Shown: positions 50,563-62,706 of the stretch, piece after piece
How positions within the stretch are numbered: the first letter of the stretch is position 1
How the letters are laid out: every line of letters starts with the position of its first letter
Assembly: GCA_965228735.1 (NCBI GenBank)
Contig: OZ245838.1
Span: 6,880,001-6,944,000, forward strand
Direction of reading: 5' to 3'
DNA from: Planctomycetota bacterium
GTDB lineage: Bacteria > Planctomycetota > UBA1135 > UBA2386
DNA: 64,000 nucleotides
Position numbers and translations under genes: made by a program
The notes under the pieces: model-generated
Told to the model about the DNA's origin: nothing
Seen by the model: the letters and a program-made list of their open reading frames with translations, nothing else
Databases searched by the model: none

Positions 50563-53500
50563 TCAGTCGTCGCCGCCGGTCAGTCCGGCGAGCATCTGTT
50601 GGGCGGCGTTCAGCATGCCGTGGCCGGGATGGGTGCGGCCCATGCGTTCGACCAGGCTCTCCAACAGTTCGATCGCGGCCTTCTTGTTCTCGCCGTCTGG
50701 GGTCATCGCGAGCGCGCGCGCGAGCCAGAACTCCGCATGGTAGGTCTGGAGGTTCTCCGGGCCGAGCGCGGTGTGGTTGAGCGTCGCGCCGCCCCGCAGG
50801 TGGGGGATCGCGTCGTCCGGGCGCTGCAGTCGCACGAACGTGATCCCGAGGCCGATGCGGGGCCGCGCCTGGGTCGGATGGTCCGCCGGCAGCGTGCGAC
50901 CGAACATCGCGATCGACTCCTCGAACAACGGGATCGCCTCGTCGTAGCGCCGCTGGCGTGAGATCGCGGTCGCGAGGCTCAACAGGCTGCCGGCGGTCTG
51001 GGAGTGTTCGCCGAGCTTCGCGCGCCTGGCGTCGAGCACCGCGCGAAACTCGTTCTCGGCGGCGGCGTGATTGCCGCGATCGAGTTCGCCGACGGCGACC
51101 GAGTTGCGCGCCGTCAAGACCACCGGGTGCAGCGCGTCGTAGACCGCGCTGCGGATCGCGAGCGACTCGCGATACATCGCGACGGCCTCGTCGATCCTGC
51201 CGGTCCGCCTGAGCAGGTTGGCGAAGTTGGACAGCGTCGTCGCGAGCTCGGGGTGGGCGGCGGGCAGAGCCGCGCGCTGAATCGCGAGGGCGTCGCGGAA
51301 CAGCGTTTCGGCTTCTTCGAGCTCGTCGAGCCGTCCGAGGCACGCGGCGAGCTGGCCCATCGTCAGTGCCGGATACGGGTGGTCGTCGTCGAACCGTGCG
51401 CGGTCGTGCGCGAGGATCTCGCGCAACAGCTCGATCGCGCGGTCGTCGTTGCCGTAGTCGATCTCGAGCATCGCGAGTTCGAACAGCATCGTGTCGACGT
51501 CCGGGTGATCGGGGCCGGTGAACTCGCGCGTCAGCTCGAGGGTCCGTTCGAACGCCGTGCGAGCCGACTCGAGATCCTCGAGCTCCTTGTAGGCCCGGCC
51601 GCGCTCCGTGTGCAGCATCAGGAACCGCGGGTCGTCGACCGCCGAGGCGTCCGGGGCGTCGCCGACGGCTTCTCGCTGGGTCGCTTCGAGCAACTCCGCG
51701 GCCTGCTCGGGACGGCCCCGTTCGCGCAGCACCTGCGCGCGCGTGACCGCGACGCCGAACGTCCGGTCCGTGACGTCGTTCTCCGCGGCGAGCCGCGCGG
51801 CCCGGTCGAGGAGCTGCTCGGCTTCGTCATAGCGGCCGGGCTCACGCAGCCAGGAGGCGAGCGTCGTGAGCCGGAGAACGCGCTCGAGCACCGGCGCCGG
51901 ACCGCCGCGTGCCGGAGGTTCGATCGACGCGCGGATGAGCCGTTCGCCGGCCGCGTCGTCGCCGTCGTGGAACGCCTGCACGCCGGCCCAGTACTGGGCG
52001 CGACGATGGGCCGAACCGTCGCCGGCATGCTCGCGCAGCACGCGTTCGGCTTCGGCCATGAGCGGGCGCGACGCGTCGTAGAGTCCGAGTCCGATGTAGG
52101 CCCGCGCCATCGTCATCTGCAGCTGCGCGCGCTGTGCGGGCGCCACGGTGAGGTCACGATCGATGCGGCGCGCGCCGCGGTCGAGCAGCTGGCGCGCACG
52201 CAGAGTCTCGGCGCGTTCGGGATCGGGCGACGCCATGTCGAACAGGTCGACGAGGAAGCCCGTCATCTCGTCCGCCAGGCGACGTTGCGTGATCGCGTTG
52301 TCTCGCTCCTGCGCGATCCGCTGGTTCTGTAGGAACGTCGTGATCGCGAACGCGACGACGAGGCCGAGCACGACGACCGCCGCGCCGAGCGCGATGCGAT
52401 GGCGCGCGACGAACTTCCGCGCGCGATAGCCGATGGTGTCCCCCTGGGCCGTGACCGGCAGCCCGTCGAGATAGTTGCCGAGGTCGGCGGCGAGCGCCGC
52501 GGCCGACTCGTACCGCCGTTCGGGCTCCTTGCGCATCGCGCACGCGACGATCGTGTCGAGGTCGCCGCGCAGCAGACGCGTCGAGTGCGGCGCGCTCGGG
52601 CCGCGCGTGTTCGCGATGGCGCTCGGGGGTGGGGGCGTGCGCTCGCACACGACTTCGATGAGCTGGGTCAGCGACCGGTTCTCGAGCGGCTGCGCGCGCT
52701 CTCCGGACAGCAGTTCGTAGAGCAGAGCGCCGAGCGCGTAGACGTCGGTCGCCGTCGTGATCGGTTCGCCGCGCACTTGTTCGGGGCTGCTGTACTCCGG
52801 CGTGAGCAGCATGTTGCCGGTGCGGGTGAGGGCGAGCGAGGCCTCGCCGTGCTCCTCCGGCAGCAGCAGCTTGGCGATGCCGAAGTCGAGCAACTTCGGT
52901 TCGCCGTCCGTCGACACGAGGATGTTGCTCGGCTTGAGATCGCGGTGCACGACGAGCGCGCGGTGCGCGTGCGCGACGCCGCGGCAGACCTTGATGAACA
53001 GGCGCAGCCGGTCGTGCAGCGAGAGCCGAGCTTCGCGGCAGAACGTGAGCAGGTCGGGCCCGTCGACGTACTCCATGACGACGTAGGGCTGACCGGTGTC
53101 CGTCGTGCCGCCGTCGAACAGTGCCGCGATGTTGGGATGCTGGAGGCCGGCGAGGATGCGGCGCTCGGTGCGGAAGCGGCGCTGCATCTCGCTGTCGTCG
53201 AGCGGCGCGCGCAGCAGCTTGATCGCGACGCGGTTCTTGAAGTCGCTGTCCTGCCGCTCGCAAAGGTAGACGACACCCATGCCGCCGCGGCCGAGCTCGC
53301 GCGTGACGCGGTAGCTGCCGATCTGCTCGGGCGGCGGCCCGGCGGCCTCGTTCTCGGCGTCCTGCATCGCGCCCGCGACCTCGGCCTCGCCGAACGCCTG
53401 CGCCGGCGAACCGAGCTCTTCGGGGTCGTCGTTGTGCTGCGCGAACAGCCGCCGCAGCTCCGTCGCGAGCGTCGGCGTCTCGGCCGCCAACCGCTCCAGC

Positions 53501-53619
53501 GCGGCGGCGCGGGCCGTTTCGGAGAGCGCCCGCAGCGCCTCGAACTCCGTCGCGATGCGACCGAAGTCGAGTTCCCCGCTATGCTTCGTGGGGCGTCCGG
53601 GCGTGGCGTCGTCGTTCAT
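50563..53619 (-). CDS. Hanks-type Ser/Thr kinase with TM and TPR repeats (ECF-associated)
   Basis: LGRGGMGVVY, VAIK, HRDLKPSN, LLDFGIAK, TPEYSSPEQ. Confidence 0.95.
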   Translation of the reverse strand: MNDDATPGRPTKHSGELDFGRIATEFEALRALSETARAAALERLAAETPTLATELRRLFAQHNDDPEELGSPAQAFGEAEVAGAMQDAENEAAGPPPEQIGSYRVTRELGRGGMGVVYLCERQDSDFKNRVAIKLLRAPLDDSEMQRRFRTERRILAGLQHPNIAALFDGGTTDTGQPYVVMEYVDGPDLLTFCREARLSLHDRLRLFIKVCRGVAHAHRALVVHRDLKPSNILVSTDGEPKLLDFGIAKLLLPEEHGEASLALTRTGNMLLTPEYSSPEQVRGEPITTATDVYALGALLYELLSGERAQPLENRSLTQLIEVVCERTPPPPSAIANTRGPSAPHSTRLLRGDLDTIVACAMRKEPERRYESAAALAADLGNYLDGLPVTAQGDTIGYRARKFVARHRIALGAAVVVLGLVVAFAITTFLQNQRIAQERDNAITQRRLADEMTGFLVDLFDMASPDPERAETLRARQLLDRGARRIDRDLTVAPAQRAQLQMTMARAYIGLGLYDASRPLMAEAERVLREHAGDGSAHRRAQYWAGVQAFHDGDDAAGERLIRASIEPPARGGPAPVLERVLRLTTLASWLREPGRYDEAEQLLDRAARLAAENDVTDRTFGVAVTRAQVLRERGRPEQAAELLEATQREAVGDAPDASAVDDPRFLMLHTERGRAYKELEDLESARTAFERTLELTREFTGPDHPDVDTMLFELAMLEIDYGNDDRAIELLREILAHDRARFDDDHPYPALTMGQLAACLGRLDELEEAETLFRDALAIQRAALPAAHPELATTLSNFANLLRRTGRIDEAVAMYRESLAIRSAVYDALHPVVLTARNSVAVGELDRGNHAAAENEFRAVLDARRAKLGEHSQTAGSLLSLATAISRQRRYDEAIPLFEESIAMFGRTLPADHPTQARPRIGLGITFVRLQRPDDAIPHLRGGATLNHTALGPENLQTYHAEFWLARALAMTPDGENKKAAIELLESLVERMGRTHPGHGMLNAAQQMLAGLTGGDD

Positions 53620-54190
53620 GTCAAGCGATCGCGAGTCGTTCACCGAGATGCTGCAGCGCCACCGCGGCGGCGAGGACGTCGCCCTCGGCGCGTTCCTGCC
53701 CGCGGTCTACGACGAACTGCGCGGCCTCGCCCGGCAGCAGCTGCAGCGCGAGGCCAAGGCGGCGCTCGAGCCGACTGCGCTCGTGCACGAAGTCTACCTC
53801 CGGCTCGTGGATCAGCGGCTCGCAGGGGTGGCGGATCGAACGCATTTTCGGCGGCTCTGTGCGCGGGTCATGCGGCAGGTCCTCGTGGACCAGGCCCGCA
53901 AACGCGATGCGCAGAAACGCGGTGGCGACCGCGAAGAAACCCTCAAAACCTGGCTCGAACCCGCGGCCCCCGATGCCGCGGGCGGCGGCCTGCCCGTGCT
54001 CGCGCTCGACGAGGCCCTCGAACGCCTCACCGCGCTCGATGAACGCAAGGCCCAGGTCGTCGAGCTGCGCTGCTTCGGCGGCCTGTCGATGGCCGAGGTC
54101 GCGGCCGCGCTCGAGGTGTCGCTGCGCACGATCGAGGCGGATTGGTACTTCGCCCGCGCCTGGCTCAAGGCCGAGCTCGCGCCGGAGTAG
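53618..54190 (+). CDS. ECF sigma factor, TIGR02999-type (kinase-associated)
   Basis: VYDELRGLA, LEPTALVHEVYLRL, MRQVLVDQAR..KRGG, VELRCFGGL, DWYFARAWL. Confidence 0.93.
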   Translation: MSSDRESFTEMLQRHRGGEDVALGAFLPAVYDELRGLARQQLQREAKAALEPTALVHEVYLRLVDQRLAGVADRTHFRRLCARVMRQVLVDQARKRDAQKRGGDREETLKTWLEPAAPDAAGGGLPVLALDEALERLTALDERKAQVVELRCFGGLSMAEVAAALEVSLRTIEADWYFARAWLKAELAPE

Positions 54191-54256: not shown

Positions 54257-54332
54257 TACCCCGTGGTGTAATTGGTAGCACATCTGGTTTTGGTCCAGTC
54301 GGTTCCTGGTTCGAGTCCAGGCGGGGTAACCA
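54257..54332 (+). tRNA. tRNA-Gln (anticodon TTG)
   Basis: Acceptor stem TACCCCG/CGGGGTA, D arm GTGT/GCAC, anticodon loop TTTTGGT, T arm CCTGG-TTCGAGT-CCAGG, encoded CCA. Confidence 0.97.
54288..54332 (+). repeat. attL core (3' part of tRNA-Gln)
   Basis: TTTTGGTCCAGTCGGTTCCTGGTTCGAGTCCAGGCGGGGTAACCA, identical to 62568-62612. Confidence 0.95.
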
Positions 54333-54411
54333 CTCTCAAGAACTGCTGAGCGTCGCACTTGCGACGAACCGGCTTCGGGCCGTGCGGCACCTGGATTCGC
54401 CCTTCGGGTCA

Positions 54412-54436
54412 GTGTCCAGCCATTTGTGTCCAGCCA
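54412..54436 (+). repeat. Candidate integrase arm-type sites (2 x GTGTCCAGCCA)
   Basis: Exact 11-bp direct repeats at 54412 and 54426; the reverse complement occurs at 60534-60544 and 62403-62413. Confidence 0.7.
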
Positions 54437-54455
54437 GAGCACCGGAGGCTTCCCG

Positions 54456-55877
54456 ATGCCGTCCAGCAGTCGCCGCACCAAGCGGTCCAAGTTCCATCCC
54501 CGCACGCCGCAGTTGCGCCGCCACAGTCGCGGCCGCGCGATCGTCACCTTGTCCGGTGAGACCCACTTCCTCGGCGCGTGGCCACCTGACGCGGCGGCCC
54601 ACCGCGCGTACGCGGAGCTCCTCGAGCAGTGGGAGGCGAACGGCCGGCAGCCCATCAAGTCCGTCGTGGAGACGTGCGCGAGTGCTCAGCGCGACGCGGA
54701 ACGGCTCGCCGAGCGGTTGGGCGTGACCGTTGACCAGGCGGAGCGGGTGCGCGTGCTGGCGATCGAGATGAGCCTGAGCCACGCCGAGGCGCTGGCGCTC
54801 GCGCGCGTGCGGCACGTCGACCTGTTCGAGCCGCAGGAGCCGGTCGCCTCGGTGCGGGACGCGCTCGCGGACTACGAGGCGCACATCGACGGCATCGGCA
54901 AGTACACCAAGGGCGGCGCGCGGACGACGGAGCGGTCACTTATCGACCGAGTCGTCCGCGAGTTCGTCGAGCAGTACGGCGACGTGCCCGTGAGCGAGCT
55001 CGGCAAGCGCCACCTGGTCGGCTACCGCCGCTGGCTCGAGGTGGACAACCCGCACTTGACGGTGAGCGGCATCCGCAGGAAGACCGCGACCATCAAGCGC
55101 GCCCTGGCGTGGCTCTACGAGGGCGAGGTGCTGACGCCCGAGCAGTGGCTCGCCGTCGACTCCGTGCGGCAGCTTCGGCGCAGCGACCTCCCCGAGCGCG
55201 ACGTGCGCAAGCCGAAGCGCGAGGTGACGCTCGAGGAGGCCGAGGCCGTCGCCGAGAATGCCGGGCGGGTCATCGGGGCGATGGTGCTCACGCAAGCGTT
55301 GACGGCGTGCCGGCCTGGCGAGGTGGTCGCGATGAAGCACGGCGACATCGACCGCACGCCGGTCGTCGGCCCTGACGGCGTGAGCTACTGGACGTGGCAC
55401 CTGCGCACGCACAAGACCTCGCACCACGACCCCGAGGCTCGGACCATTCCGCTCGGACCGCGGGCGCAGCAGATTCTCGGCCAGTTCCGCGGCTTCGGCG
55501 CCGCGTTCGTGTTCCAGCCGCGCGACATGGTCGCCGACCGTCGCCGTGAGCAGCGCGAGCGCCGGAAGACTCCCGTGCAGCCGAGCCAGCAGGCACGCGA
55601 CAGAAGGCCGAAGCGCCCCGTTGCCGCGCAGTTCGACACCGACCTCTACAACCGATGCGTGCTGCGAGCCATCGCGCGCACGAAGGGCGTGGCGAGGTTC
55701 ACGGTCCACCAGCTTCGGCACGGCGCGTTGTCGCGCATCGCACGGACCGAGGGTCCGCTCGCGGCGCAGGCCATCGCAGGGCACAAGCACCTGACGACGA
55801 CGCAGGGCTACGTGCACCACGCACGCGACGACGCATTGCGTGCGGCGGCGTGCCTGGACGGCGCGCAGGTCGGCTAG
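54456..55877 (+). CDS. int: Tyrosine recombinase/integrase
   Basis: GGAGG SD; catalytic set ACRPGE (R), HKT (K), HQLRH, GHKH, QGYVH (Y); N-terminal arm-binding-like segment. Confidence 0.95.
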   Translation: MPSSSRRTKRSKFHPRTPQLRRHSRGRAIVTLSGETHFLGAWPPDAAAHRAYAELLEQWEANGRQPIKSVVETCASAQRDAERLAERLGVTVDQAERVRVLAIEMSLSHAEALALARVRHVDLFEPQEPVASVRDALADYEAHIDGIGKYTKGGARTTERSLIDRVVREFVEQYGDVPVSELGKRHLVGYRRWLEVDNPHLTVSGIRRKTATIKRALAWLYEGEVLTPEQWLAVDSVRQLRRSDLPERDVRKPKREVTLEEAEAVAENAGRVIGAMVLTQALTACRPGEVVAMKHGDIDRTPVVGPDGVSYWTWHLRTHKTSHHDPEARTIPLGPRAQQILGQFRGFGAAFVFQPRDMVADRRREQRERRKTPVQPSQQARDRRPKRPVAAQFDTDLYNRCVLRAIARTKGVARFTVHQLRHGALSRIARTEGPLAAQAIAGHKHLTTTQGYVHHARDDALRAAACLDGAQVG

Positions 55878-55980: not shown

Positions 55981-56610
55981 GTGGCGATTGACTGGACCGC
56001 AGTGATTCACGCCGTCGACGACGACGACGGCATTCGACGATTGCACAAGCGGTGGGCGCACCGCCTCGGAGTCGCCGCAGAGGGCGAGTTCGGGCGGCAG
56101 CTGTTCGACGTGTTGGACGAAGCCGACGACGACCTGCTCGATTCGCAGGCTGAGTTGCGCGTGCGCGTCGATGGCTTCGCGGAACTCGTCTCGCAGGGCG
56201 ACCACGCAGCGCGGTACGACGAGTGTGCGGACTCCACGCTGTTCCTCTCGTTGTTCGTGTCGGCGTCCCCCTCGACGGGTGTGACGGTTGCGGACGTGCT
56301 CGCGCAGGGGCGGAAGATGCTCGCGGAGGTGGGCAAGTGGGTCGCGCGTGCCGAGAACCTAGGGCGGCGATCGGCGACCACGATGACCGCGGCGGAGGAC
56401 CGGCAGATCCAGCGCCGGAATGCTCTGCTGCGATGCGTGCCTGCGCGGTGCGCTGAGGAAGGTCGGCCACCTAGGACCATGACCGAGGTAGTGGGGTGGT
56501 TGAGCGCCGACGAGGGTCTCAACGCCAGCGATAAGACGGTGAAACTCGACCTGCTGGCCTTGCGCGATGACGGCCGCCTGACGCCGGACCAACTACCGCC
56601 GCTCGGCTGA
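55981..56610 (+). CDS. Hypothetical protein with C-terminal wHTH (putative element regulator)
   Basis: GGAGG SD before GTG; TMTEVVGWL..EGLNASDKTVKLDLLALRDDG is HTH-like. Confidence 0.7.
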   Translation: MAIDWTAVIHAVDDDDGIRRLHKRWAHRLGVAAEGEFGRQLFDVLDEADDDLLDSQAELRVRVDGFAELVSQGDHAARYDECADSTLFLSLFVSASPSTGVTVADVLAQGRKMLAEVGKWVARAENLGRRSATTMTAAEDRQIQRRNALLRCVPARCAEEGRPPRTMTEVVGWLSADEGLNASDKTVKLDLLALRDDGRLTPDQLPPLG

Positions 56611-56687: not shown

Positions 56688-56996
56688 ATGAGCACCCCGA
56701 CCAAACACCGTGGCGCGACCGGCGCCCTCTCGACTCTCGAGTCGCCCTGGTGGGTAGACGACGGCGAGCCTCTCACGCTCGCGGCGGCTACCCGCCTGTT
56801 CCCGAGGCGCGCCGATGGGAAGCGCATCAGCCTTTGGACGCTGCATCGGTATCGCGAGCAGGGCGTCGCGTTGGGGCGCGGCCGTCGCCTCCGCCTGCGC
56901 TGCTTTCGCGGGGACGCGAGTTCGTGGGCGACGACGACCGGCGAGATCGGGCGATTCCAACTCGCGCTGACGGAGGCGCGCGGGGGCGACGCCTGA
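56688..56996 (+). CDS. DUF1580-like HTH protein (excisionase/AlpA-like)
   Basis: LTLAAATRLFP...ISLWTLHRY..QG..LRLRC...WATT..I.RF pattern; position upstream of the rep-like gene. Confidence 0.75.
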   Translation: MSTPTKHRGATGALSTLESPWWVDDGEPLTLAAATRLFPRRADGKRISLWTLHRYREQGVALGRGRRLRLRCFRGDASSWATTTGEIGRFQLALTEARGGDA

Positions 56997-56997
56997 G

Positions 56998-58500
56998 ATG
57001 CCCCAGTTCCGCGACTTGCTGGTCGGCCACAGCCCGGGCGCGTCCCCCGAGGCGACGCTCGTGCTCTCCGCGCGCGCGGCGTTCGCCGGCTTGCTGGCCG
57101 CCGGCCGGGCGATGCCGAACCGTTCTCCGCGGGTGCCGACGATAGTCGAGGTCGCGGCCGAGCTCGGCCTCTCTCGTGACGCTGTCCGACGCGGTGACCG
57201 CGAACTGCTCGAGCGCGGCGAGCTCGTGAACGGATCTGACGGGCCTGAGGTCGTTCCTGCCGCTCTGGCGCGGCGTGCCGCTGACCGTCGACGGCTCATC
57301 CGCCTCGACCGCGACGTTCGGTCCCGCGGTCTCCGGCCGAGGACGTTGCTGCTCGCCGGCCTCGTGCGTGCCCAGGCGCGCCCACGCGGCCAGTTCTGGG
57401 CCGGGGTGCCCGTGCTGTCCGACCGACTCGGGCTGCCACCTCGGACGACCGAGCGCGCCCTCGCGGCGGCCCGAAAGGCGGGCGTCGTTCGGTCTCACGT
57501 CGTTCCCGGCTCATGGCGACTCGTGCTGTCGCCAACCGGCGGAAGCAGTGCGTCGCAAAGCGGCGGAAGCAGTGACCCGCAGCCGAGCACTCCGGACGGC
57601 CACCCGGAGCCGACGTCGCGAATGGGCGGGAGCAGTGACGCCGGCCCGGTGTCGCGAAGCGGCGGTCCGAGCGTTGCGAATCGGCGGCCCCCGTGTCGTG
57701 AATCGGCGGCCGGAGTGTCGCGATCCGGCGGAAGCTCTGCGGAAGTGCGGAGTACGGACTCACCTCCGGAACGCGTGGGCGCGCGCGAGACGCCGCCACG
57801 GGCGGCGGGTGAAACCAGAGCCCTGCACGACAGCCGGCAGCAGCAGAGGCCGAACCCGACAGCGGGGCGGGTCGATGTTCGATGGGTCGCCGGCGAGTGG
57901 GCGGTCCGGATGATCGTCGGCAACGGGCGGGAGCAGCTGACCGAAGTCGACGCGGCCCACCTGGCGGCCCTGCTCGATGAGCTCGAACCGCCCGAGGCCG
58001 ACCCCTACGTGCGCGACCCGCGGGCCGTTCGCCGGGAGCGGCTGTCGTTCGCACGGAGCGTCATTCGGTGGGGGCCTTCGCCCGAGATGCTGGCCCGATG
58101 GCTGGCGGTGGCGGTGCCTGTCTACGGCGTCCGAGGGGCTGGCCAGTACCTGCGTCGCACGGTCGAGGGTGGCGGCGACCCTGGCACGCTACTCAGCCGC
58201 CACGGCGGCGGTGAGCAGGCTCTCTACCCCGAGCACGAGGCCGCTCTGCTCGGCGACAGGGCGCGCGAGGTCGCGGGACTGGTGGCGGCCACGGCGGCGG
58301 TCGTTGGTGCTGACGGCGACGCCCGCGAACAACTTGCCACCCAGCTTCGCGACGCCATCGATGCCGGCGACCTGGCGGTTGCTCGCGTGGCGGTGCTCGC
58401 GTTGCTCGACGGCCTACCCGCGCACCCGCTGCGTGTGGCCCGCATCGCAGAGCGAGTCGGCGTGGAGCCCGAACGCATCACGGAGGCGCTGGCGGCATGA
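56998..58500 (+). CDS. Putative replication initiator with tandem wHTH domains
   Basis: HTH motifs EVAAELGLSRDAVRRG..L.ERG and LSDRLGLPPRTTERAL..A..AG; low-complexity linker carrying DNA repeats; C-terminal HTH. Confidence 0.7.
   Translation: MPQFRDLLVGHSPGASPEATLVLSARAAFAGLLAAGRAMPNRSPRVPTIVEVAAELGLSRDAVRRGDRELLERGELVNGSDGPEVVPAALARRAADRRRLIRLDRDVRSRGLRPRTLLLAGLVRAQARPRGQFWAGVPVLSDRLGLPPRTTERALAAARKAGVVRSHVVPGSWRLVLSPTGGSSASQSGGSSDPQPSTPDGHPEPTSRMGGSSDAGPVSRSGGPSVANRRPPCRESAAGVSRSGGSSAEVRSTDSPPERVGARETPPRAAGETRALHDSRQQQRPNPTAGRVDVRWVAGEWAVRMIVGNGREQLTEVDAAHLAALLDELEPPEADPYVRDPRAVRRERLSFARSVIRWGPSPEMLARWLAVAVPVYGVRGAGQYLRRTVEGGGDPGTLLSRHGGGEQALYPEHEAALLGDRAREVAGLVAATAAVVGADGDAREQLATQLRDAIDAGDLAVARVAVLALLDGLPAHPLRVARIAERVGVEPERITEALAA
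57527..57731 (+). repeat. Iteron-like array (7 x ~16 bp, YGTCGCGAAN-CGGCGG), putative origin
   Basis: Copies start at 57527, 57551, 57614, 57650, 57672, 57694 and 57716; the last four have an exact 22-bp period. Confidence 0.8.
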
Positions 58501-58697
58501 TGATCACGCAGCCGAGGCCCGCGTCGTTCAAGTGCGCGAGGTGCGGGCGGCCGACGCTCGCGAAGGACGGGGTTCCCGCTGACCGGTGTTGCACGGCCTG
58601 CAGGCGGGGGAGTGCCGACGCGTCGCTGGCAGCGTGGCGGCATCGGTCTGGCGTGACGCCGACATGGCCGACGAAGCGACCCGAGGGGACGGCATGA
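58497..58697 (+). CDS. Small Zn-finger-like protein
   Basis: CARC...CTAC; ATGA overlaps at both ends. Confidence 0.6.
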   Translation: MMITQPRPASFKCARCGRPTLAKDGVPADRCCTACRRGSADASLAAWRHRSGVTPTWPTKRPEGTA

Positions 58698-59026
58698 CCG
58701 ATCAGCGAAACATGCGGCGGCTTTCGCGCGTGCTCGTGGGGCTCTACCGCGACACCGTCCCCGGCGTCGATTCGGACGGCGCTCCGACCGTCGTGGGGTG
58801 GACTCCGTCCGACCTCGAGGGCGATGCGCTGATTGCAGCCGTCGATCGGGCCGACCCGGCGCTTCGGTGGCTGTCGTGGCCGGAGCCGTTTGAGGCGGTC
58901 GTGTTCCGCGCGTGGTCGGTACTTCACCGAGAGTCCGCGCGCCGCGTGATCGACGAGGCCGAAGCGCAGGGCGCATCGCCCGAGGATGTCGCTCGGTGGC
59001 GGCGGAAGCTGGAGACGGGCGCATGA
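58694..59026 (+). CDS. Hypothetical protein
   Basis: ATGA-coupled; GAGGGG SD. Confidence 0.65.
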   Translation: MTDQRNMRRLSRVLVGLYRDTVPGVDSDGAPTVVGWTPSDLEGDALIAAVDRADPALRWLSWPEPFEAVVFRAWSVLHRESARRVIDEAEAQGASPEDVARWRRKLETGA

Positions 59027-59256
59027 CAGCCACCATCGCCGACCTGGTCCGCTCGCGGATGGTGGACCTCGGCGCCGACCGCGACGACGTTCTCGCGGCG
59101 GGTCACGCACTCGACCACGAGCGCGGACCGCATGCGCTGTCGCAACTCGTCGCGGAGGTGCGCGCGTGGACACGCACCGGATGGATGCCGCTCGACCCGC
59201 TCGCGTACTACGTCATCTCGCGGCTGCGCCAGGCCGGCGTGTGGAGGGCGACGTGA
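59023..59256 (+). CDS. Hypothetical protein
   Basis: ATGA-coupled; GGAG SD. Confidence 0.65.
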   Translation: MTATIADLVRSRMVDLGADRDDVLAAGHALDHERGPHALSQLVAEVRAWTRTGWMPLDPLAYYVISRLRQAGVWRAT

Positions 59257-59552
59257 GCGAACCTCGAGCCGTTTCGATCGACACGCTCGTCCGGGCACGG
59301 CAGCGACGGGCCGCCGCCGAACGTCAGGTCGCACAACTGAAGGCGACCGTTGCCCAGCTGCACGAAGAACTCGCCGACGCGCGGCGCGAGATCCGCCGCC
59401 TGCAACAGATCAACCAGACCAACCAGGCCGGCACCGTGCCGGTCGCAACCGAGAGAAGCGATGAAGGCGAAGACCAAGAGCACGAAACCGACCCACCCAG
59501 ACCCGAGGCCGGGCAGCAGCAACGCCGCCCAGGACCACGGTCAGCGCCGTAG
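59253..59552 (+). CDS. Hypothetical coiled-coil protein
   Basis: GTGA-coupled; GGAGG SD; heptad segment VAQLKATVAQLHEELADARREIRRL. Confidence 0.6.
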   Translation: MSEPRAVSIDTLVRARQRRAAAERQVAQLKATVAQLHEELADARREIRRLQQINQTNQAGTVPVATERSDEGEDQEHETDPPRPEAGQQQRRPGPRSAP

Positions 59553-59676
59553 CCACGAGTCCTTGAACGCCACGCCGAAGACGGCGGGCAAGGAGTGGCA
59601 ACGCGCAATCGCCGAGTCCGGCGGCTCGACGGTGCACGGCCAGTTCGACGGCCGCACCGGCAAGCGCAAGCAGTAG
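59461..59676 (+). CDS. Small basic hypothetical protein
   Basis: GC3-rich codons; overlaps the tail of the previous ORF by 92 bp. Confidence 0.5.
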   Translation: MKAKTKSTKPTHPDPRPGSSNAAQDHGQRRSHESLNATPKTAGKEWQRAIAESGGSTVHGQFDGRTGKRKQ

Positions 59677-59708
59677 ATCCACCACCAACCCGAACCAGGA
59701 GAATCCCA

Positions 59709-60206
59709 ATGACCGAAGAACACGACGACGACATCGACAACCCCGACGACCGCTCGCAGATGAGCGTCACCGAGCGACTGGCGAAGCTCGAGTCCGAGCG
59801 TGTCCTCGCGCGACTCGAGCGCGATCACCAACTCGGCGGCGAGCACGCGCAGGAAGTCCTCGACATCGTCGCGTCCAGCGGCGGAACCATCAGTGAGGGC
59901 GAGGCCGTCCGCGTAGTCGAGGAGCGGCACGCGCTCGGCTCCGTTCGACCAATGCACAGCCACGGGCAGATGCGCGCGCAGTCTCGGGGTGGTCCTCGCC
60001 CTCGGCAGAGCCCGCGAGCGGCGCAGCGGGAGCGACTGGCAGCGATCCGCGAACTTGCCCAGCGCGACAAGCGAGCAGCAGCGGCCGAGGCCAGGCTCGA
60101 GCACGGCTCCATGTTGGCCTCCGCAATGAACTGGTCGCATGGCGCGAGCGAGGGACGAGACGCGGGGACGATTCGGTCCCGCCACGGCCTCGTCGCGCAG
60201 CAGTGA
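59709..60206 (+). CDS. Hypothetical protein with acidic N-terminus, helical
   Basis: AGGAG SD before ATG 59709. Confidence 0.7.
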   Translation: MTEEHDDDIDNPDDRSQMSVTERLAKLESERVLARLERDHQLGGEHAQEVLDIVASSGGTISEGEAVRVVEERHALGSVRPMHSHGQMRAQSRGGPRPRQSPRAAQRERLAAIRELAQRDKRAAAAEARLEHGSMLASAMNWSHGASEGRDAGTIRSRHGLVAQQ

Positions 60207-61657: not shown

Positions 61658-62386
61658 CTACACCCGCAGGACCCAGTTCAGGTTCATGGAGAAGATCCAA
61701 CCGATTCCGAGCGCTCCCAGAGCGAACATCGCCGTGGCGACATGGAGAGCCACGGGGTTGTGCCTCCCAGCGGCATCGAAGACGGCCCAGAACACGGCGT
61801 CCCAATCGACCTCCTCCGTATCCCTATCCGCGAAGTCCGCCCACTGCTCACCGTTCTTGACGAGGCCGAACTCGTGGAACTTCTCCGGCAGCTTCTCCTC
61901 GCTCGGATACGAGAACAGGTAAAGCGACTGGGACGTGCCGATGCGTCGCCCGGCGGAAAAGCCGAGGGGTCGCCCGATCTGTTCCGGACCATGTGCGATG
62001 CGTTGCGCGTAGCGCATGAGGTGCTGGGGCTGCTTCCTCGACGCCTTGAACGAGCCCACGTCCGCATGGTCCTTGATGACCTCCGGACAGCGCCAGTCGA
62101 ACAGCAAGTGCGCCAACGTGAAAGCCACCGCGGTTCCGAACAGCACCTGCCATCGGAACGGCAACTGGAGGCTCTGCACGAAGTCAGCAGCCCACTCCGG
62201 TTCGGTCACCCGTTCCCGGAGTTCCAGCACGACTCGAGCGGCGATCGGAACGGCGCCGATCCAGATCATCGAGCTGCGAACGAGTCGGTTCTGCCCCCAT
62301 GCGCGTAGGCGCTGCCATTCGAGCCACGGTCGCTTCTCGGCGAGTGTCGCGTCTGGGTTGACCGGGTGCCGAACGATCGACTTCAC
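61658..62386 (-). CDS. Cargo membrane protein (about 3 TM), function unknown
   Basis: Only antisense gene in the element; segments SSMIWIGAVPIAA, LPFRWQVLF..CPEVIK and a C-terminal TM. Start uncertain (62386-62455). Confidence 0.7.
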   Translation of the reverse strand: MKSIVRHPVNPDATLAEKRPWLEWQRLRAWGQNRLVRSSMIWIGAVPIAARVVLELRERVTEPEWAADFVQSLQLPFRWQVLFGTAVAFTLAHLLFDWRCPEVIKDHADVGSFKASRKQPQHLMRYAQRIAHGPEQIGRPLGFSAGRRIGTSQSLYLFSYPSEEKLPEKFHEFGLVKNGEQWADFADRDTEEVDWDAVFWAVFDAAGRHNPVALHVATAMFALGALGIGWIFSMNLNWVLRV

Positions 62387-62567
62387 GGCGTCACTGTAGC
62401 CATGGCTGGACACGGGGCCCAGTTGTGTCCACCGGGCATGCTCAGACATGCACACCCTTGCACGTCACCGGGCTTCTGGTAGGCTGAGAAGGTCGACCCG
62501 ACATCGCGGGTCTAGGTGCTGTTTCGAGACCGATTCCGAGGGTTTGACTCTCCGTGGCTGGCCGAGA

Positions 62568-62612
62568 TTTTGGTCCAGTCGGTTCCTGGTTCGAGTCCAG
62601 GCGGGGTAACCA
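62568..62612 (+). repeat. attR core (duplicated tRNA-Gln 3' end)
   Basis: 45/45 identity to 54288-54332; the tRNA 5' half is absent. Confidence 0.95.
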
Positions 62613-62706
62613 TTCGACGCTGACCCAGCGTTGCTGCGATCGCTGGCCGGTTGGTGTTCGGGTCGTTGTCGATCGTTCCCTCGGTGGCCATCCAATCGTC
62701 CCAGTT

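Follow-up and report, generated by a model that had tools for sequence, protein, structure and literature searches.

The window, by which we mean the whole 64-kb stretch of DNA analysed, contains an 8,280 bp island integrated at a tRNA-Gln gene and lying between 48-bp direct repeats that are 98% identical. ARAGORN places the integration target, tRNA-Gln(TTG), at 54257–54332 on the forward strand, as are all features of the window given below unless otherwise stated. The attL core (54288–54335) corresponds to the 3' end of the tRNA, and the attR core (62568–62615) lies 8,280 bp from it. A tyrosine integrase is encoded at 54426–55877, matching PF00589 above the cut-off and phrog_1 with E = 1e-25. 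This is followed by a 209-aa ORF (55981–56610), identified by its coding score and having no Pfam, PHROG or NCBIfam match, and by a 102-aa ORF (56688–56996) with no family match that abuts the initiator gene. By position alone these might be a regulator and an excisionase or AlpA-like protein respectively. The 102-aa ORF has a homologue of 34% identity located 5' of the initiator in locus L032. The putative replication initiator of 500 aa (56998–58500) was assigned from AF2 modeling, fold searches and PHROG initiator matches. Downstream are small co-oriented ORFs (66, 110–120, 77, 99, 71 and 165 aa; 58497–60206) with no reliable family, and a cargo ORF of 203–265 aa on the reverse strand (61658–62455), again with no family. 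The latter has 24% identity to an ORF near the L028 element, and is possibly an accessory or defence gene.

No helicase, loader, primase or capsid gene was recognised among the 12 island ORFs using Pfam, PHROG and NCBIfam, searches in which divergent loaders could be missed. Neither AlpA nor pri-rep families are matched on the island in Pfam or PHROG, and no ParA-type gene was recognised there. The sigma-70 promoter consensus was not found, and terminators are not in excess. To the left of the island (50563–54190) the host carries a divergent gene pair whose products, recognised by eye from the translations, are an ECF-type sigma factor and a Ser/Thr kinase of 1026 aa containing TPR-like repeats. 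In the public protein collection the initiator gene is represented solely by a C-terminal call of 196 aa (57910–58500), and a codon-based gene caller shortened the gene likewise. Since both shorten it, the initiator family is likely to be under-annotated.

Predicted fold of the putative initiator and distribution of its relatives

Using an alignment of 45 sequences, AF2 predicts that residues 1–180 form two winged helices (WH1 and WH2) with pLDDT = 93–98, followed by a disordered linker (183–288) and a helical C-terminal domain (290–500). Folding from the single sequence gave pLDDT = 43. The predicted recognition helix of WH2 comprises residues 148–160 (57439–57477). In a Foldseek search of the PDB the top match was RepE (E = 0.027 over about 220 columns), and none reached E ≤ 0.001. 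Re-alignment with RepE54 (VIA rank 1) superimposed residues 1–184 of the model with Z = 8.2 and rmsd = 4.4 over 171 aligned residues. In a wide fold search the pi-iteron complex (2nra), alone among the matches listed, spans the whole tandem (Z = 6.8, rmsd = 4.0, 170 aligned), and single-wHTH regulators (Z = 6–8) are there equal or ahead in Z; they are also level with RepE. Among viral models a phage protein annotated as 'Replication initiator protein' matches best (E = 1.8e-4). Of the 45 members, 16 match PHROG 391 ('replication initiation O-like'), the best with E = 2e-7, and seven match PHROG 270. The lambda-O-like signal is confined to these partial O-like matches and weak BFVD rows (E = 0.02). 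The Rep_3 profile (PF01051/PF21205) did not match the window protein at E ≤ 0.1, and is absent from the 25 of 28 families that were listed for the 45 members. Phage_rep_O and RepA_N (PF06970) are likewise absent from the Pfam matches of the window protein and from the families listed for the members, and RPA (PF10134) is absent from the latter. The N-terminal domain is therefore predicted to be a plasmid-type double winged helix, with RepE and pi as its best whole-domain matches at moderate scores. The initiator-like wHTH fold proposed in the initial annotation is upheld in this form, but it is not that of the N-terminal domain of lambda O, there being no Phage_rep_O match.

For the C-terminal domain, Pfam, PHROG and the PDB gave no sequence match, and the Atlas gave only unnamed clusters plus a T4 gp59-type lead at 0.87. 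The domain is exchangeable, the type found in the window being present in 22 of the 65 proteins tested. At L039:779-2323 (reverse strand), beside an integrase, the same domain is attached to an unrelated N-terminal domain, and this gene has its own weaker linker repeat with one 22-bp pair. Judged by its domain make-up, L039 is a domain exchange within the initiator module. In another homologue (L028:9153-10070, reverse strand) the frame breaks just 3' of an intact array and the C-terminal domain resumes in another frame, which is either a real break or an assembly error.

The N-terminal domain was matched in 12 of the 91 genomes of the taxonomic family including the source genome, two of them weakly. 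Its profile matched 10 of the 90 other genomes of the family, none of 248 other genomes of the class, and none of 400 other genomes sampled from the phylum; 8–10 candidates per genome were scored in the class and phylum searches. A profile search of 1.84 billion representative proteins gave 56 at E ≤ 1e-10. In word-indexed searches the full-length query gave no matches, and an alignment query returned just the shortened 196-aa call from the window itself. There were no relatives in IMG/VR scans, phage records or plasmid records (tblastn).

Within a single Planctomycetota family, the homologues occupy prophages and islands resembling satellites, and 11 of 15 loci have an integrase close by. One homologue sits before RusA, terS, terL, portal-type, major head and tail genes of a prophage, and other att-bounded elements have lengths of 7,670 bp (at tRNA-Leu, with a terS-like gene) and 15,004 bp (at tRNA-Phe). 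No helicase or P/DnaC-type loader was recognised among 109 ORFs around the homologues, where divergent loaders could again be missed. The source genome itself contains a paralogue (G000:C1:1283485) of about 50% identity to the window initiator, with Gln at residue 152. This is carried by a 17,360-bp tRNA-Leu element (L056:888-18290; G000:C1:1280388-1297748) that also has a tape-measure gene, a gene for a head maturation protease and a virion-protein-like ORF; in the 15 ORFs scanned, neither a terminase nor a major capsid gene was recognised. L027, L030, L034 and L037 also have incomplete sets of virion genes (tape measure, tail, terS, protease). All five elements may be satellites that remodel the particles of a helper, or prophages in decay.

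The intragenic repeat array and the adjacent segment

Re-scanning the window gave seven copies of a 16-bp motif within the initiator gene, beginning at 57527, 57551, 57614, 57650, 57672, 57694 and 57716, with copy-to-copy spacings of 24, 63, 36, 22, 22 and 22 bp. They comprise a distal pair 24 bp apart (57527–57566), a third iteron (57614–57629) and four phased iterons with a 22-bp period (57650–57731). These coordinates and spacings confirm the seven copies, the last four at 22 bp, described in the initial annotation. The array spans codons 177–245. Its placement in a linker following two wHTH domains also holds good, as confidence is high in the prediction of both domains and of linker disorder; at codon 177 the first copy overlaps the final WH2 strand. 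With a leave-one-out PWM, equal scores across the 64 kb are reached by the array's own copies only. Genome-wide (7.19 Mb) there are 31 sites scoring at least 16.5, and the sole cluster of at least two within 300 bp is the seven-copy array.

The DNA is 70% GC and five of the seven copies lie in one reading frame (frames 1, 1, 1, 1, 2, 0, 1), which might be expected if the repeats arose by chance or were protein-level repeats of a low-complexity linker. Yet the array has a score of 95, whereas 150 synonymous recodings of its peptide peak at 50 and 148 random windows of 270 nt at 47; none of either set reaches 95. Moreover the arrays of homologues rotate through all frames. Taking protein-only and DNA members together, 27 of 52 linkers contain motif translations in two or more frames, whereas none of the 52 N-terminal segments and none of the 44 downstream ones does so; divergent motifs are missed in this count because the patterns came from close relatives. 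Given the result of the recoding and the multi-frame translations in the linkers of homologues, the array is a feature of the DNA and is not explained by the protein sequence, and an origin in chance or in the peptide is extremely improbable. Selection of the repeat as DNA had been argued earlier from the frames of the copies. The conclusion is supported by the recoding and family data, but the original argument depends on copies 5 and 6, the other five being co-framed.

The initial annotation had pointed to linker repeats in homologues as a check, and these are present in all 15 DNA loci. In a de novo motif search the linker outscored the N-terminal control at all 15 loci, and its C-terminal counterpart at 14 of 14. 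Left out of these counts were L010 and L033 (cut before the linker), L040, L041 and L055 (weak matches) and L039 (other N-terminal domain). Runs of 22–23 bp are found in 14 of the 15 loci, and nine begin with a pair 23–24 bp apart directly after WH2. Each element has its own consensus. In each of the four genomes that have two copies of the initiator (G000, G001, G077 and G097), the copies have distinct iteron consensuses, and in three of these genomes they also differ at residue 152. In a distant homologue (L036:1845-3029, forward strand) the repeat unit contains a perfect 16-bp palindrome.

Directly 3' of the last iteron lies a 40 bp segment (57732–57771) that is the least stable 40-mer of the gene. 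It has 40% AT compared with 25% for the gene (i.e. it is 60% GC), and within the 64 kb its instability ranks no higher than about the 95th percentile. For array ends placed manually according to the homologue motif search, the 30 bp after the last iteron have a mean of −1.51 kcal/mol per step, compared with −1.62 to −1.75 at all other offsets. At 12 of 15 loci the post-array 40-mer ranks in the bottom 3% of gene windows by stability, the exceptions being L035, L036 and L070. In the window this segment contains four CGGA repeats (57740, 57748, 57755 and 57767). Four CGGA are found after the array in 11 of the 15 loci, five in one, four CCGT in two (L036 and its sister L035) and none in one. The CGGA repeats begin 7–9 bp after the array and are often mutually out of frame. 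The origins of F and RK2 are described as having four short DUE repeats that are bound by Rep as single strands (PMC4081077, PMC10602881). The conserved low-stability segment is a likely candidate for an unwinding element. The earlier view that no AT-rich unwinding element is obvious thus needs modification; a candidate exists, but it is AT-rich in relative terms only. Further downstream is a GC hairpin with a 7-bp stem (57791–57807), the strongest 24-nt hairpin among 38 blocks of the gene, followed by GGTGAAACC (57808–57816). The hairpin is among the four strongest blocks of the gene in nine of the 15 loci, and GGTGAA(A/C)C occurs in seven. In a search for DnaA boxes we found none closer than two mismatches, and none near the array.

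Most sequence-level matches of the protein are generic HTH regulators and, as noted above, single-wHTH regulators score as well as RepE and pi in fold searches. The protein might then be a repressor with tandem wHTH domains and the array no more than an operator or roadblock within the gene, the island replicating otherwise or not at all. The sequencing reads show no amplification, as such a repressor would allow. In eight public read runs covering the region the island is identical and its depth is about that of the flanks. Unitig depths for the island (flanks in parentheses) are 24.7 (23.6/18.3), 5.8 (4.5/2.6), 22.3 (18.5/19.4) and 7.5 (5.5/6.8), and in further runs 9.8 (4.2/10.7) and 3.8 (6.8 or 2.2/3.3), one run being fragmented. 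No circle or empty-site joint is listed in the eight runs, whose contigs break at the att core, and the raw-read run comprises just 49 reads. However, a segment of conserved low stability whose four short repeats start at a constant 7–9 bp from the last site is not something that a regulator needs. RepE and pi align to the entire tandem, no other replication gene was recognised on the island, and no other part of the genome, including its promoters, contains a cluster of the motif. We therefore consider a role confined to repression distinctly unlikely.

Phased repeats occur in centromeres too. Residues 437–500 of the protein align weakly with Spo0J/ParB (Z = 6.9, 57 residues), and a ParB-like gene lies 5' of one homologue. 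It is nevertheless very improbable that the array is a partition, anchoring or packaging site of the protein and not an origin. No ParA-type gene was recognised on the island, which integrates and so has no need of partition, and the C-terminal domain is swapped among homologues while the array and low-stability segment stay.

Residue 152 and the last base of the iteron

A link between residue 152 in the predicted WH2 recognition helix (Glu152 in the window; codon 57451–57453) and the last base of the iteron was first spotted by eye, and all 173 columns were then scanned. The last base could be called for 35 of the 54 core proteins, 14 from DNA and 21 from linker peptides. L070 (a tie), P0058 (outside the core) and L071 (identical to P0019) were dropped, and the register of three Arg members was set by eye. 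The pairings are Glu-G in 11, Gln-C in 13, Asp-A in four, Asp-C in one and Arg, Phe or His with C in six. In leave-one-out trials column 152 gives the correct last base 34 times out of 35 (z = 11.7); the next best column achieves 27 of 35 (z = 5.4). In a tree built without the helix, residue 152 and the last base each change nine times. Four independent pairs lie on supported branches and agree without exception (p = 0.125), and the unsupported tree has nine; the bootstrap is not fully settled. The window protein (Glu/G) nests with two Gln/C relatives with support of 100/95. The locus L070:1040-1230 has a Glu helix with a mixed array of three G-ending and three C-ending copies, and may be a specificity switch in progress.

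This covariation makes it likely that residue 152 sets which element each initiator copies. For pPS10 RepA it is described that WH2 contacts the iteron at its 3' end and mainly determines specificity (10.1101/2024.09.03.610885), to which the tracking of the last base by residue 152 is similar.

The origin could be correctly identified and the link to residue 152 still be hitchhiking, if helix and array recombine as one block with no contact between residue and base. They could move jointly by recombination because they are about 75 bp apart. The neighboring columns 137, 148, 159, 166 and 168 are also raised (z = 4.4–5.4), and in WH1 the nearest member to the window protein has Gln (61%), whereas in the wing it has Glu (53%). 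The small number of supported independent pairs and the mixed array of L070 would also fit. On the other hand column 152 stands far above its neighbors (34 versus at most 27 of 35 correct). Moreover Glu-G is found in four separate places in the tree, including a distant clade (L037) and inside Gln clades (the window and L027), with different left iteron halves. Pairing of Glu with cytosine and Arg with guanine are textbook contact preferences, and these fit a direct reading of the base. On balance hitchhiking seems rather unlikely.

A probable intragenic origin and its relation to known replicons

We conclude that the ORF is most likely the RepE-like initiator of the island and the linker DNA its origin, in an intragenic layout of the lambda O or RepA_N style. 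The reading of the initial annotation, i.e. that this is the origin of the element and the ORF a divergent initiator, is thus supported by the computable tests (linker arrays, fold, and replication position in prophages and islands). It is built on observed sequence anatomy and conservation together with a predicted fold, from which we infer binding, melting, recruitment and helper dependence. Against it are the moderate fold scores, the lack of a Rep_3 or Phage_rep_O match, an unwinding candidate of 60% GC, no nearby DnaA box, and a C-terminal domain without family.

In the mechanism we propose, the integrase would excise the island, and initiator monomers would then bind each 16-bp site. WH2 would read the 3' half of the iteron with residue 152 selecting the last base pair, such that Glu specifies G (C on the other strand), Gln, Arg, Phe and His specify C, and Asp mostly A. 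Four monomers at a 22-bp period would be aligned on one face of the helix. The adjacent 40 bp would open, and the four CGGA repeats would be held single-stranded, as RepE and TrfA hold four DUE repeats. The exchangeable C-terminal domain would recruit host replication proteins, a role suggested because no helicase or loader is recognised on the island. Binding of the initiator inside its own gene may also limit its transcription. For transfer the island likely depends on a helper phage.

RepE of F (PDB 1REP, 8AC8), pi of R6K (2NRA), RepA of pPS10 and TrfA of RK2 share with the window initiator the predicted WH1-WH2 and two-turn direct repeats, and are described as having an adjacent low-stability segment with four short repeats (PMC4081077). 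In double-WH initiators the helices of both WH1 and WH2 are reported to read the iteron (PMC10602881). Unlike these proteins, the window initiator has about 10% identity to them, no Rep_3 match and an origin inside the gene. It has an additional 105-aa linker encoded by the origin and an exchangeable C-terminal domain, and its family is found on integrated phage-type elements, with no match in plasmid records. The unwinding candidate differs too, being 60% GC with no DnaA box nearby.

In lambda O and Stx-phage origins the iterons and unwinding tract are described in the middle of the initiator gene, with additional distal iterons besides four proximal ones (PMC7466680). The window initiator gene resembles lambda O in this intragenic layout, in the prophage context of the family and in the PHROG O-like matches, but differs in the predicted tandem WH domain, the mostly non-palindromic sites and the lack of a Phage_rep_O match. 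Nor is there a recognised P/DnaC-type loader next to the initiator, or a tract that is AT-rich in absolute terms. The RepA_N-type Rep of pSK41 is described as a DNA-binding domain, an ori-encoded linker and a C-terminal domain, with four Rep boxes mid-gene (PMC5703833). That three-part layout is the same, but RepA_N proteins have a single WH and belong to low-GC Firmicute plasmids, whereas the window initiator has two predicted WH and no RepA_N match among the families listed.

PICI-type satellites are similar to the window element as small att-bounded islands at tRNA genes, carrying an integrase, small regulators and a replicon and no recognised capsid, and relatives of the window element carry terS-like genes. 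PICI origins are described as two iteron sets on either side of an AT-rich region (PMC6092414). In contrast, the window island has no pri-rep or AlpA match, its array is one-sided, and its genes are co-oriented. In planctomycete plasmids, which come from the same phylum, iterons are reported upstream, downstream or inside of rpa genes, along with three HTH_36-type initiators (10.1101/2024.01.22.576637). Our family differs in having no RPA (PF10134) match among the families listed, and no tblastn match in plasmids. By profile, then, the window initiator is not a member of Rep_3, Phage_rep_O or RepA_N, and by gene set and origin layout the island is not a PICI.

A literature search, with subscription journals mostly outside its coverage, gave no description of this initiator family, or of a double-WH fold with an intragenic origin on temperate-phage-type elements. 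Intragenic origins and double-WH initiators are each known already, and what appears to be new is their combination in elements of this type. We judge the chances to be even that this is an undescribed family of phage and satellite initiators that combines a double-WH fold and an intragenic origin with a 60%-GC CGGA opening and a one-residue specificity switch (Glu/G, Gln/C, Asp/A). If so, each gene would carry a readable protein-DNA code, and co-resident elements would stay orthogonal. There would be some 50 natural initiator-origin pairs with the binding site legible in the gene itself, and the co-evolution of Rep and iteron that is the basis of replicon incompatibility would become testable by single substitution. 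The family would also show how a 70%-GC replicon can melt without an AT-rich tract, and would provide compact and possibly orthogonal replicons for the Planctomycetota.
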